Positions 2,503 through 4,884 of a DNA stretch of 50,331 nt are shown piece by piece (position 1 is the first letter of the stretch; every line of letters begins with the position of its first letter). The notes under the pieces were generated by a model. It was not told the origin of the DNA. It saw only the letters and a program-made list of their open reading frames with translations, and did not search any database. The position numbers and the translations under genes were made by a program. The stretch lies in IMG/VR virus record IMGVR_UViG_2734482547_000008. One strand, written 5' to 3'. This DNA is from a virus. Its lineage: Duplodnaviria; Heunggongvirae; Uroviricota; Caudoviricetes.

Positions 2503-2685
2503 TCAGGGCTGGGTCGGGTCTTTTGGGAGCGGAGTTACCTGCGCTGTTTTACTGAGTTTTTCAGCTGCTGCGTCCTCAATTTTGCGGCGAACATAATTTC
2601 TGATGGCCTTATAACCACCACTCACCAGATATAACGCACATACTGCCGTGCAGAAATACAATAAAATAAGCTGTAAAAATGTCAT
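2503..2685 (-). CDS. Small single-pass membrane peptide (60 aa)
   Basis: ATG at 2683-2685 preceded by GGGAGGG. Sequence MTFLQLILLYFCTAVCALYLVSGGYKAIRNYVRRK has one hydrophobic helix and a charged tail. A hairpin (AGCCCTG...CAGGGCT) overlaps its stop. Confidence 0.5.
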   Translation of the reverse strand: MTFLQLILLYFCTAVCALYLVSGGYKAIRNYVRRKIEDAAAEKLSKTAQVTPLPKDPTQP

Positions 2686-2700
2686 TATCCCTCCCAATTA

Positions 2701-2727
2701 TTGACATGGTGTTGACACCGGTAATAT
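2701..2727 (+). promoter_or_regulatory. Candidate sigma70 promoter for a short + strand transcript
   Basis: Two TTGACA hexamers (2701-2706, 2712-2717) and TAATAT (2722-2727); spacing is 15 bp from the first hexamer. Reads toward the strong terminator at 2781-2822. Confidence 0.3.
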
Positions 2728-2780
2728 CTGTTAGGTAAAAAGGTGCACTGCATTTTTTGCTTTGGATATAACGATCTTTT

Positions 2781-2822
2781 TGCCGCCGGTTTCTTGTTTT
2801 CCCTTACCGGCGGCATTTTTTT
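2781..2822 (+). terminator. Intrinsic terminator on + strand (end of candidate small RNA)
   Basis: 10-bp GC-rich stem (TGCCGCCGGT 2781-2790 / ACCGGCGGCA 2806-2815), 15-nt loop, then a run of 7 T (2816-2822). On the - strand the stem is followed by A residues, so it is orientation-specific. Confidence 0.55.
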
Positions 2823-2829
2823 ATCCTGC

Positions 2830-4884
2830 TTACGCGTTATTCACTTCCACCACGATACTGTCAATCAGTACCGGGTAAGTCGCATTTTTAGTGATATCGG
2901 TCACGCGCAACTTGTCTGCCGTAAACGTGCCGACCGGAGACTGCGACAGCATGAATGGTGTCCCGTCCTTACCATCAATGACCGGCGTCACCTCAATACT
3001 GTTGTTACCGGCAAAACGGAAGCCCAGCGTATGCCATTCGTTATTAAATGCGCCGAATGACCCCAGCTTCGTGTTCTGCGCCGTGTTTCCTTTGTGATAC
3101 ATCACGTTAAGGTCTGTGGCATCGCTCTGTACGTAGAACGATGCCAGCAGGTTATGACCGGCATTTCCTTCCAGAGTAACCCCTTGCGGCAGGGCAGAAA
3201 CCGGCCAGTACAGCGCCAGTGCGTACTGATTAGCCGTAAGCGCGCCATCGAGTTTAAAACGACAACTGACAAGACCACCTTTACCCAGCAGGTCCGCACC
3301 ATTACCAGCATCATGCTCAAGGTACCAGGGGGCTCTTCCTGTTTCCTTGGTCAGTTTCATTGCCTTACCCCCGCTGGCTCCGGCATCATCCACGATTTGA
3401 GCCTTGCCACCTCCGGCAGCCCAACCCTGTGGTGTCAACCGTCCTTCAGACTCAGATGCCCGGTAAGCAAATAGCGTACTCATCGTCGTGGTGTCTGCGG
3501 GTGGCGTGGACGGTTTTGATGGTGTATCAGGTGACGGCTTCTCATCCGGTGGTGTCACGGTCTGCCCGCGCATCAGTTCAGCCGTGCGCCCTGCATGGAG
3601 CATAATAGCTGAGGCCAGACGGTCTGAAATGACGCCCCTGCGTGCCCATGAGCTGAAATGGCTGTCACGCTGTGTCGAAACAAAACTGCCCTGGGTTCGG
3701 GATGCTGCACCGTAATACCCGACAGCCACAATATCCGGGTCTTCCGCCGGAGCATTCGTTGGCGTGCTCTGTCCATTCTCATCCGTCAGGAACGGTACAA
3801 AGAAAATTTTCTGTGCTTCCTTGCCTTTGTAGCCACCGTATACTGCCTCATATTTATCGGTGCCAGCGTTTTTCCAGTAATACGTGGTATCACCGCAAAT
3901 CCACGGCACCGTGGTGGCATTTCCACTCACGCACTGCGCAGCAAGCGGAGCCAGGTCAGTTCTGAACTGCTGAACCATGGCCGTGAATAAACTATTATGC
4001 TGCTGGCTTCCTGAGGCAAGGTCTGCCTCTCCCTGCATCCAGACCACAGCCAGAAGTTTGTTTTTCGGGTTTTTCGCCAGCGCGACTTTGGTGCGGCTTA
4101 CCAGGTCCTGATACAGAGGTTTACCGGCCCCCCAGCGTGAAGAATCAGCGGAAGCACCGCTGGCCTCACTGAATGAGCCGTCGGCTCCAGTGGTGAATGC
4201 TGACCCGCCACGACAACAGGGCACCAGAAGTATCCCGGCATTCTGTGGGATATAGGGAAGCAGTTTTTTGGCAATATGCAACCCCTGACCGACAGTCCCG
4301 TACTGGCCTTTTGCCAGATCAGCTTTCGGGTGGTTTATCCCGCTCATATCCTGAACATCATGCAGGCAGTGGTCTGCCGGAATGATGTCGTTGTATGTAC
4401 ACGACGTACCGTTGGGCGTTACCGTACTGCGGCGTGCCAGTTGCTTAATGCGTGGGTCCGGGCGGTCAAACGAATCCGGTAACGGCAGCCCCTCGCCGTA
4501 GGCCATGCCATTTGACTGACCCGCGAGAATGACAACAAAGTAATATTCCGGCTCTGAACTGCTGCCATTCGTGCTACCGGAAGGCCCGGCGTTATCCGGT
4601 GCATTCCAGTCGGAGGGCGTGAGCGTTCCGGCCACGTCAGATGTGATTGGAATGATGCCAGTCACGCCTGAACTGGTGATTTCTGCACTGGGATTACCGG
4701 ATACCGGCATTACCCATAATGGCTCTTTCGTGCTGAAGCGGATCACGCAGTCTGCGAAAGTGATCCCCCCTTTATTACCCGAAGGGCGGAAAGGGCTTTC
4801 AATAAATGCCACCGTGCCACCGGCAACCTTGACTGAAAACTCTCCGGGCATGGCGGAGAGCATTTTCCACTTGGAGTCTGACAT
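2830..4884 (-). CDS. SASA/SGNH-family carbohydrate esterase-like protein (684 aa, sialate O-acetylesterase-like) with C-terminal beta-rich domain
   Basis: ATG at 4882-4884. Motifs ILAGQSNGMAYGEG (GQSN block) and VVWMQGEADL are typical of SASA/SGNH esterases. Pro/Ser/Thr-rich linker (PPDEKPSPDTPSKPSTPPADTTT), then a ~200-aa C-terminal domain. No N-terminal signal peptide. Phage-like GC content. Confidence 0.65.
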   Translation of the reverse strand: MSDSKWKMLSAMPGEFSVKVAGGTVAFIESPFRPSGNKGGITFADCVIRFSTKEPLWVMPVSGNPSAEITSSGVTGIIPITSDVAGTLTPSDWNAPDNAGPSGSTNGSSSEPEYYFVVILAGQSNGMAYGEGLPLPDSFDRPDPRIKQLARRSTVTPNGTSCTYNDIIPADHCLHDVQDMSGINHPKADLAKGQYGTVGQGLHIAKKLLPYIPQNAGILLVPCCRGGSAFTTGADGSFSEASGASADSSRWGAGKPLYQDLVSRTKVALAKNPKNKLLAVVWMQGEADLASGSQQHNSLFTAMVQQFRTDLAPLAAQCVSGNATTVPWICGDTTYYWKNAGTDKYEAVYGGYKGKEAQKIFFVPFLTDENGQSTPTNAPAEDPDIVAVGYYGAASRTQGSFVSTQRDSHFSSWARRGVISDRLASAIMLHAGRTAELMRGQTVTPPDEKPSPDTPSKPSTPPADTTTMSTLFAYRASESEGRLTPQGWAAGGGKAQIVDDAGASGGKAMKLTKETGRAPWYLEHDAGNGADLLGKGGLVSCRFKLDGALTANQYALALYWPVSALPQGVTLEGNAGHNLLASFYVQSDATDLNVMYHKGNTAQNTKLGSFGAFNNEWHTLGFRFAGNNSIEVTPVIDGKDGTPFMLSQSPVGTFTADKLRVTDITKNATYPVLIDSIVVEVNNA

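Follow-up and report, generated by a model that had tools for sequence, protein, structure and literature searches.

An EcOnc33-type Hfq-binding small RNA probably encoded next to a NanS-p-like esterase gene in a Mu-like prophage

We analyzed a stretch of viral DNA of 50,331 bp (here referred to as the window), in which positions 2747 to 2822 of the + strand probably make up an independent gene whose product is an Hfq-binding small RNA (sRNA) of ca. 76 nt, an allele of EcOnc33. The RNA itself was already known as a little-studied, Hfq-bound sRNA from prophages of pathogenic Escherichia coli, and the novelty is modest, consisting of the Mu-like carrier phage and a seed with U in place of G. EcOnc33 was found by Hfq crosslinking in O157:H7 and gives a Northern band of ca. 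71 nt (Tree et al. 2014, PMC4104026, Table S2); in the Sakai strain, it showed an Hfq-CRAC peak in 5 of 5 datasets and a predicted Rho-independent terminator (Tree et al. 2014, PMC4104026). A previous reading made from the letters alone (the sequence-only reading) had predicted a noncoding + strand transcript of ca. 70 to 90 nt with its own promoter and terminator at this place, and the near-identical Sakai element supports it.

Results

The features of the region are collected in Table 1. The hexamers, the TAATAT box, the terminator, the esterase stop codon, and the peptide start all lie where the sequence-only reading had put them.

TABLE 1 Features of the sRNA locus and of the neighboring genes in the window
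Feature	Position	Strand	Basis or remark
First TTGACA hexamer	2701-2706	+	Sequence inspection
Conserved -35 hexamer TTGACA (second copy)	2712-2717	+	Invariant in alignments A1 and A2
TAATAT box	2722-2727	+	
-10-like TAAAAA	2736-2741	+	18 nt past the conserved -35
Predicted sRNA transcript, ca. 76 nt, EcOnc33-family allele	2747-2822	+	Homology, fold, T-run
Probable seed region, CUGCAUUUUUUGCUUUGGAUAUAAC	2748-2772	+	Half recovered in Sakai EcOnc33 CLASH hybrids
Intrinsic terminator (10-bp stem, 15-nt loop, U7 tail)	2781-2822	+	AUCUUUUU just before
Esterase gene with SASA and DUF6645 domains, NanS-p-like, convergent with the sRNA	2830-4884	-	Pfam PF03629 (1.5e-13), PF20350 (7e-68); RefSeq annotation in an identical genome agrees
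DUF1378 gene, 60-aa peptide with hydrophobic N terminus	2503-2685	-	PF07125 (9e-32); phrog_494
DUF826 gene, 84 aa, third of the transplanted module	2213-2467	-	PF05696 (6e-16)
Terminator-like hairpin closing the esterase/DUF1378/DUF826 unit	2181-2206	-	10 pairs, then TATTTTCATG; consensus match only

The two arms of the terminator stem (UGCCGCCGGU at 2781 to 2790 and ACCGGCGGCA at 2806 to 2815) form 8 G-C pairs out of 10, and a run of seven T (2816 to 2822) follows directly. No other perfect stem of 8 bp or more with six or more T behind it was found on either strand of the entire window. The hairpin was detected by a custom scan that allowed loops of up to 16 nt, while the standard scan (loops of ≤8 nt) missed it. 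Behind the stem, the - strand reads AAAAAGAUCG, without a U-run, which rules out a bidirectional terminator; because of this, transcription would be stopped only on the + strand, as the earlier reading had held. The hexamer TTGACA occurs nine times on the + strand of the whole window (ca. 11 expected), and two of these copies lie 64 to 80 nt upstream of the unique terminator. Fold prediction gave -23.0 kcal/mol for the RNA from 2747 to 2822 (z = -4.5), with none of 200 shuffles as stable. The 3' end is placed at the T-run, and the U-rich stretch, hairpin, and U7 tail would together make up a typical Hfq-binding 3' module. Several open reading frames overlap the element. The one of 43 aa on the - strand (2685 to 2816) was rejected as a gene, given that its ATG is absent from the Sakai allele, where indels are also found, and those starting at 2743 and 2762 on the + strand were not treated as genes because they run through the terminator into the esterase antisense.

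To judge by conservation, the promoter probably uses the second TTGACA and not the first. The sequence-only reading had built its promoter from TTGACA and TAATAT, both of which are present on the + strand, but the first hexamer pair is not conserved, and only the second TTGACA is. The latter is invariant in 7 of 7 loci of alignment A1 and 6 of 6 of alignment A2, and every related locus keeps it together with the 18-nt spacer and TAAAAA. Along similar lines, the motif TTGAC-N16-19-nAnAAA was found in 95 of the 97 slots tested, and the A-rich block of the -10-like element (A98 and A100 to A102 in alignment A1) does not vary across sRNA classes. TAAAAA, which would act as the -10 element, matches the consensus weakly (4 of 6 positions, with no T at position 6). 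The first TTGACA, its 15-nt spacer, and TAATAT read TTGATA/TAATAC in Sakai, and the O170:H18 copy has lost the equivalent of the first hexamer through a deletion; in the window allele alone, this pair could provide a further start near 2734. The RNA most likely spans 2747 to 2822, with a 5' end that homology suggests: the 5' ends of PasA and PasC, two sRNAs of enteropathogenic Escherichia coli (EPEC) E2348/69, map to the C of the aligned CTGCC, and Sakai CLASH reads start at CCTGCATG. The authors of PasA suspect that it is processed out of a longer transcript. By the boundaries used here, the Sakai RNA measures ca. 80 nt, compared with ca. 71 nt on the Northern blot.

The assignment to EcOnc33 is carried by the 132-nt intergenic region, which has 80.6% identity over 100% coverage to the copy in prophage Sp6 of O157:H7 Sakai; in alignment A2, the mean column identity was 86%. 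When reverse complemented, the Northern probe for EcOnc33 matches Sp6 exactly and the window in 30 of 35 bases. Both loci are flanked by a NanS-p-type esterase gene and DUF1378 in the same convergent orientation, and they share the terminator core GCCGCCGG/CCGGCGGC and the conserved -35 hexamer. They differ in that the Sakai prophage is lambdoid while that of the window is Mu-like, and the window has a terminator loop 7 nt shorter, 2 extra nt just before the stem, and the additional upstream TTGACA/TAATAT pair. Position 7 of the seed CUGCAUG is polymorphic (G in Sakai, U in the window, deleted in strain M3), and the window allele retains the module of U-rich stretch, hairpin, and U7. The stem is invariant in alignment A2, so that there is no covariation within the EcOnc33 class. 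The region is present in 355 of 5,426 complete E. coli genomes, and 21 genomes have it at an identity of 99% or more. JE86-ST05, FORC_069, and DLI.5a are examples of strains with the window allele. EcOnc33-type copies were seen only in bacterial chromosomes and IMG/VR prophage contigs, and the spacer had no match in the GenBank phage collection. No Rfam family was matched, either in a permissive search of positions 1 to 8000 or at the gathering threshold over the whole window. A scan of GTDB genomes with a seed-plus-stem pattern gave two matches, both discarded as chance hits inside coding regions of unrelated metagenome-assembled genomes. Identity with AsxR or AgvB was also ruled out, as both are located on the upstream side of the esterase gene and differ in sequence.

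The place behind NanS-p-type esterase genes behaves as a slot for sRNAs, with a constant frame of promoter and terminator, RNA bodies that differ, and an RNA running head-on into the esterase stop codon. Each of the 107 classified IMG/VR contigs could be assigned to a class of convergent sRNA body, and there were at least seven such classes (in the first pattern scan, 85 of 120 matches were unrelated coding sequence and 35 were real). In each of the 44 distinct slot sequences, a hairpin of -14 to -23 kcal/mol immediately precedes the T-run, and the stem sequences differ between classes. The invariant columns of alignment A1 belong mainly to the promoter, the terminator core, and the T-run, with almost none in the RNA body. 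DUF1378 follows the slot in 97 of the 107 contigs, and the other 10 have none within 700 nt. Even related Mu-like prophages, those of the window and of locus L002, carry two different sRNA bodies in the same slot.

PasA and PasC occupy the same slot in the same orientation, between a sialate esterase gene, with which they are convergent, and the holin side, and the 3' end of PasC lies 2 nt from the esterase stop codon. They share with the window the TTGACA-N18-A-rich frame, a 5' end at ACUGC, and a terminator with a U-tail, but their bodies and terminator stems cannot be aligned with it (alignment A1), and no DUF1378 or DUF826 gene follows the slot. Under activating conditions, both are less abundant when hfq is mutated (Pearl Mizrahi et al. 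2021, PMC8550237; Zhu, Shabalina and Storz 2026 preprint). EcOnc51 and EcOnc52 are homologues of PasA, and the RIL-seq partners of PasA include the 3' ends of adjacent esterase genes. The anti-sRNAs AgvB, AsxR, and EcOnc03 (Tree et al. 2014) are likewise short, Hfq bound, convergent with moron genes, and located in the late region of Stx-type prophages, and their family also combines a conserved 3' part with a variable 5' targeting part. However, their slot is bounded by stx2B (or some other moron) on one side and the esterase gene on the other and does not follow the esterase, their sequence is unrelated, and their targets are the sRNAs GcvB and FnrS, compared with the mRNA hybrids of EcOnc33.

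In the window, the module of esterase, sRNA, DUF1378, and DUF826 lies in a Mu-like prophage between a gin-like invertase and com/mom, while in lambdoid phages, DUF1378 lies within the late operon, just ahead of DUF826 and the holin. The sRNA terminator abuts the esterase stop codon (2830, - strand). The DUF1378 gene starts with an ATG at 2685 (- strand) preceded by a Shine-Dalgarno sequence, GGGAGGG, at 2690 to 2696. Its peptide has one hydrophobic N-terminal segment and a hydrophilic tail of ca. 35 aa, and no function is assigned to it in PHROGs (phrog_494) or in the literature searched.

In the lysogen, transcription would start from the conserved TTGACA, 18-nt spacer, and TAAAAA and would stop at the one-way terminator. 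The single-stranded 5' part (CUGCAUUUUUUGCUUUGG...) would probably serve as the seed and base pair in trans with mRNAs of the host. In the case of the Sakai allele, the start region of arcA was found ligated to the EcOnc33 5' end by RNase E-CLASH (Waters et al. 2017), with 5 replicated hybrids between that end and ECs5359 at an FDR of 2.7e-4 (supplementary table, Waters et al. 2017); ECs_5359 is arcA. A second CLASH hybrid joined the same 5' region to ECs0890. Pairing with the arcA translation start region, on the strength of 5 hybrid reads, is the best-documented target candidate of the Sakai allele. The predicted duplex between the 5' 30 nt and this region reached -22.4 kcal/mol for the Sakai allele, in the top 0.5% of the background, and -17.5 kcal/mol for the window allele (top 4.5%), which is not distinctive. 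Given that the G-to-U change weakens the predicted arcA pairing, the targets of the window allele may differ from those of Sakai. A scan for local targets of the seed across the 50-kb window returned only loose, long-looped duplexes. Homology, position, and structure are shown for the window copy, and association with Hfq and RNase E is shown for the Sakai allele; the expression, 5' end, and targets of the window copy are inferred.

Discussion

The sequence-only reading had proposed a type I toxin-antitoxin or antisense-controlled membrane peptide, with DUF1378 as a membrane toxin and the convergent RNA pairing with the leader of its mRNA so that translation is blocked or decay is set off. We consider this highly improbable. 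The short peptide with its single hydrophobic segment would suit such a pair, DUF1378 follows most slots, and a - strand transcript entering from the esterase gene would be perfectly complementary to the RNA. However, this complementarity holds only for read-through mRNA from the esterase gene, on which a cis-antisense effect is geometrically possible. The RNA ends ca. 50 nt short of the peptide Shine-Dalgarno sequence, without overlap with the start or the coding region, and a consensus scan of 2686 to 2829 gave no sigma-70-like site on the - strand. Slot sRNAs also occur without DUF1378, in the 10 contigs mentioned above and at the PasA and PasC loci, and the homologues bind Hfq and form hybrids in trans. 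Known type I systems (Hok/Sok, TisB/IstR-1, Ibs/Sib, and Zor/Orz) also place a small hydrophobic peptide gene beside a divergent sRNA gene, but the peptide of the window lacks both a promoter-like site of its own and overlap with the RNA, and its hydrophilic tail and late-operon position in lambdoid phages are unlike stand-alone type I toxins. The literature searched reports no toxicity of DUF1378. A silent relic, copied into the Mu-like phage along with the esterase and not transcribed or without function there, is very unlikely. The -10 element is weak and the seed differs from that of the Sakai allele, but none of the -35, seed frame, terminator, or U-tail is disrupted, the region is conserved nearly unchanged in the 21 genomes, and the two different bodies in one slot of related Mu-like prophages suggest maintenance rather than decay. 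In a relic, the hairpin would only stabilize or terminate stray antisense transcription.

A cis-acting insulator is also unlikely, although it has more in its favor. Convergent transcription and an RNA duplex with the intercistronic region between esterase and DUF1378 would limit read-through in lysogens. The module always abuts and faces the esterase stop codon in the contigs classified, a - strand terminator is absent at the slot, the PasA partners at adjacent esterase 3' ends point the same way, and a frame that is kept while the body varies fits a function dependent on position rather than on sequence. Nevertheless, Q-antiterminated late transcription is expected to override such an insulator, and in the Mu-like context there is no downstream lysis cassette, only DUF1378, DUF826, and then a terminator-like site. 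In each class the 5' seeds are conserved, and this, like the partners recovered by CLASH and RIL-seq, favors sequence-specific action in trans. In lambdoid phages, the genes downstream do include the lysis cassette, and insulation is compatible with trans regulation. An improbable extension is that slot sRNAs gate esterase read-through into DUF1378/DUF826 by convergent transcription and RNase III-sensitive pairing. DUF1378 would then be membrane active and modulate lysis, and lysogens would keep it silent; the read-through would, in lambdoid phages, extend into the holin cassette. If true, it would be a phage-borne safety catch resembling type I toxin-antitoxin systems and would explain why the frame is conserved and the body freely swapped.

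The reading that we prefer, a trans-acting Hfq-binding sRNA, concerns one of the most abundant unannotated Hfq-bound RNAs of O157:H7, which is without an Rfam model or RefSeq annotation and has reached Mu-like prophages along with its esterase module. The annotation of prophage sRNAs may benefit from the wider picture, in which NanS-p-type esterase genes are followed by a fixed frame of promoter and terminator that accommodates at least seven RNA bodies. The polymorphic base of the seed is the very one needed to complete the pairing with the start codon region of arcA. If the link to arcA is true, a global regulator of respiration would be tuned differently from strain to strain, depending on the prophage allele.

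Predicted small RNA gene in the spacer downstream of the esterase gene

The sequence elements from which the sequence-only reading had predicted a short + strand transcript were all found between window positions 2686 and 2829, and the features of the region are collected in the table. The built-in terminator scan passed over the spacer hairpin, given its loop limit of 8 nt versus the 15-nt loop here, while our own scan of both strands of the whole window (loops of ≤16 nt, a perfect stem of ≥8 bp, and then ≥6 T) found it as the sole match. On the − strand, AAAAAGAUCG comes after the stem, so termination would be expected for + strand transcripts only, in agreement with the one-way terminator proposed.

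Features of the esterase–DUF1378 region in the window
Feature	Position	Strand	Basis
com/mom	470-1361		
Terminator-like site ending the esterase/sRNA/DUF1378/DUF826 block	2181-2206		
DUF826 gene, 84 aa	2213-2467	−	Pfam
DUF1378 gene, 60 aa	2503-2685	−	Pfam
TTGACA, first	2701-2706	+	sequence reading
TTGACA, second	2712-2717	+	sequence reading
TAATAT	2722-2727	+	sequence reading
10-bp stem UGCCGCCGGU/ACCGGCGGCA, 15-nt loop	2781-2790 and 2806-2815	+	sequence reading
T7 run directly after stem	2816-2822	+	sequence reading
Esterase gene (SASA, DUF6645)	2830-4884	−	Pfam
gin-like invertase (recombinase)	4970-5542		

RNA-seq coverage puts the 5′ ends of PasA and PasC, two sRNAs of EPEC E2348/69, at the C of ACTGCC, aligned with ACTGCA in the window, and RNase E-CLASH reads from Sakai start at CCTGCATG (Waters et al. 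2017). From these ends, we placed the predicted RNA at 2747 to 2822 (ca. 76 nt). Its folding energy is −23.0 kcal/mol (z = −4.5). The proposed promoter, tandem TTGACA plus TAATAT, stood in part: the motifs are present and the second TTGACA is invariant in the alignment, but the first hexamer, 15-nt spacer, and TAATAT are unconserved as a pair (TTGATA and TAATAC in Sakai), and an O170:H18 copy lacks the first hexamer. Since the −10 candidate, TAAAAA, is weak, we infer promoter function from conservation.

An allele of the EcOnc33 family

The Rfam search gave no family for the spacer RNA, and RefSeq has no annotation inside the spacer. In their supplement, Tree et al. 2014 (PMC4104026) list a Northern probe for EcOnc33, an Hfq-bound sRNA of prophage Sp6 in E. 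coli O157:H7 Sakai. The reverse complement of this probe, GTCCTGCATGTTTTGCTTTGGATATAACGACATTT, has an exact match in the Sp6 spacer, antisense to the esterase gene, and agrees with the window at 30 of its 35 bases. Aligned over their full length, the Sp6 and window spacers are 80.6% identical. EcOnc33 had an Hfq-CRAC peak in 5/5 datasets, a predicted Rho-independent terminator, and a Northern band of ca. 71 nt (Tree et al. 2014, PMC4104026). Judged by homology, the small RNA gene had been correctly spotted, and its product is a new allele of the known, uncharacterized EcOnc33 family.

The spacer is present in 355 of 5,426 complete E. coli genomes, with the window allele (≥99% identity) in 21 of them and 80 to 90% identity, chiefly the O157 allele, in 327. 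A GTDB pattern scan (one genome per species) returned only two matches, both by chance, so the family looks restricted to the E. coli/Shigella accessory genome. Among the 373 places found, only one, an EcOnc33-type copy, was plasmid borne, on the 420-kb pDCE7-1 (L010), which carries a lambdoid lysis region.

A conserved sRNA slot after esterase genes

PasC (79 nt) runs head-on to a SASA esterase gene, ending 2 nt from its stop codon, and PasA holds the same spacer position in another E2348/69 prophage; the esterase-PasA/PasC-holin arrangement was described by Zhu, Shabalina and Storz (2026 preprint). PasA and PasC resemble the window RNA in slot and convergent orientation, within a common promoter/terminator frame. 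We aligned seven loci (the window, Sakai, an Stx2a phage, a Mu-like phage, PasC, PasA, and a second module downstream of PasA), and the invariant columns were mainly TTGAC, an A-rich block 18 nt later, the terminator core, and the T-run.

An IMG/VR scan for the esterase C-terminal coding sequence gave 107 contigs with enough flank to classify, and all had convergent-sRNA bodies, of at least seven classes (including 13 EcOnc33-type and 60 of the UCUCCAURGGUAU class). In 44/44 distinct slot sequences, the T-run came directly after a hairpin (−14 to −23 kcal/mol), with stems varying by class (GCCGCCGG, CCGCCAGCG, CCCGCC, GCCAGCG, and GCCAGCAC), and the motif TTGAC-N16-19-nAnAAA occurred in 95 of the 97 slots tested.

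The commonest body (60/107 contigs, including Stx2a phages; IMG/VR loci L132 to L201 and others, and L003 2880-3010) contains UUUUCUCCAURGGUAUUACCACCGCCAG, which is closely like the Esr41 (EcOnc14) region UUUUCUCCAUGGGGUAUUCCCUCCGCCGG from CLASH reads. By this likeness, the slot after nanS-p in Stx2a phages may be another site of Esr41-like RNAs. In E2348/69 prophage PP2 (L004 2765-3000, − strand), the spacer is taken up by two sRNA modules in tandem: PasA, and behind it a further unit that runs from a TTGACA to a terminator at the esterase stop codon. The 3′ end of the "minor 236-nt PasA" (743264) coincides with the terminator of this further unit, and the long form may thus arise by read-through of PasA into a separate sRNA gene.

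A lambdoid module in a Mu-like prophage

In E. coli JE86-ST05, a stretch identical to this part of the window carries the annotations mom, com, hypothetical gene, DUF826, DUF1378, and DUF6645 esterase, followed by a gin-like recombinase and then tail fibre and baseplate genes, which identifies it as a Mu-like prophage's right end. Elsewhere, the esterase/DUF1378/DUF826 trio is a standard late-region block of lambdoid Stx-type prophages, with stx (or another moron) on one side and the holin gene on the other, which points to a lambdoid esterase/sRNA/DUF1378/DUF826 module transplanted into a Mu-like phage. In the window, the block (2213 to 4884) lies between the gin-like invertase and com/mom and ends at the terminator-like site, with no lysis cassette.

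The same esterase block, with a different slot RNA body (CCUUUAUGGGUUAGG class; L002 4230-4480), is found in a related Mu-like phage that is itself integrated within an Stx2c phage; the RNA cassette has thus been exchanged between Mu-like phages that are otherwise alike. The 684-aa esterase (window 2830-3200 versus 4550-4884) matches phrog_143 only from ca. residue 71, and its SASA domain begins at residue 117; the stretch ahead of that domain matched no Pfam family and is perhaps specific to the Mu-like context.

Cis and trans modes of action

The sequence-only reading had proposed, as a hypothesis, that the RNA is a cis-antisense regulator in a type I toxin-antitoxin-like arrangement. DUF1378 is indeed small with a hydrophobic N-terminus, and the RNA would be complementary to any mRNA that continues past the end of the esterase gene, but the sRNA had no DUF1378 gene within 700 nt in 10 of the 107 contigs, nor is there one at either Pas locus. 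The spacer scan found no promoter-like site for the peptide gene, which in lambdoid phages is internal to the late operon; ca. 50 nt separate the RNA end from the peptide's Shine-Dalgarno sequence; PHROGs and the literature searched record no function or toxicity for DUF1378; and homologues are Hfq bound and form hybrids in trans. We therefore consider an antidote role very improbable. A non-toxin role in cis, as an insulator against read-through, is somewhat less unlikely and would be compatible with regulation in trans.

We take the 3′ part of the window RNA (AUCUUUUU, hairpin, and U7) to be a classic Hfq-binding module. This reading follows what is established for Hfq-dependent sRNAs in general (Otaka, Ishikawa and Aiba). 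By RNase E-CLASH, Waters et al. 2017 list two EcOnc33 interactions in their Table EV7. In one, the EcOnc33 5′ end is joined to ATTTAGGTAGCAAACATGCAGACC of ECs5359 (five replicated two-way hybrids; FDR, 2.7e-4), and in the other, the same 5′ region is joined to ECs0890. ECs_5359 is arcA, and the hybrid site covers its Shine-Dalgarno region and start codon (Sakai locus L131 1233-1260). The loci of the EcOnc33-arcA entry are L131 1233-1260 and L006 ca. 4195-4275. The main text of Waters et al. 2017 mentions arcA nowhere, the link being only in the supplementary table; we consider arcA a lead, a candidate target from supplementary data.

With the arcA start region, the 5′ 30 nt of the Sakai allele gave a duplex of −22.4 kcal/mol (top 0.5% of background) and those of the window allele one of −17.5 kcal/mol (top 4.5%). 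Seed position 7 is polymorphic across EcOnc33 alleles: the Sakai allele has a G (G7), whose pairing partner is the C immediately ahead of the arcA AUG (AAAC-AUG), and the window allele has U. The RNA most likely acts in trans, by Hfq-dependent base pairing of its 5′ seed with targets that would be specific to the seed allele. Two things set the window allele apart: its seed polymorphism, and the Mu-like prophage that carries it, which is an unusual host element.
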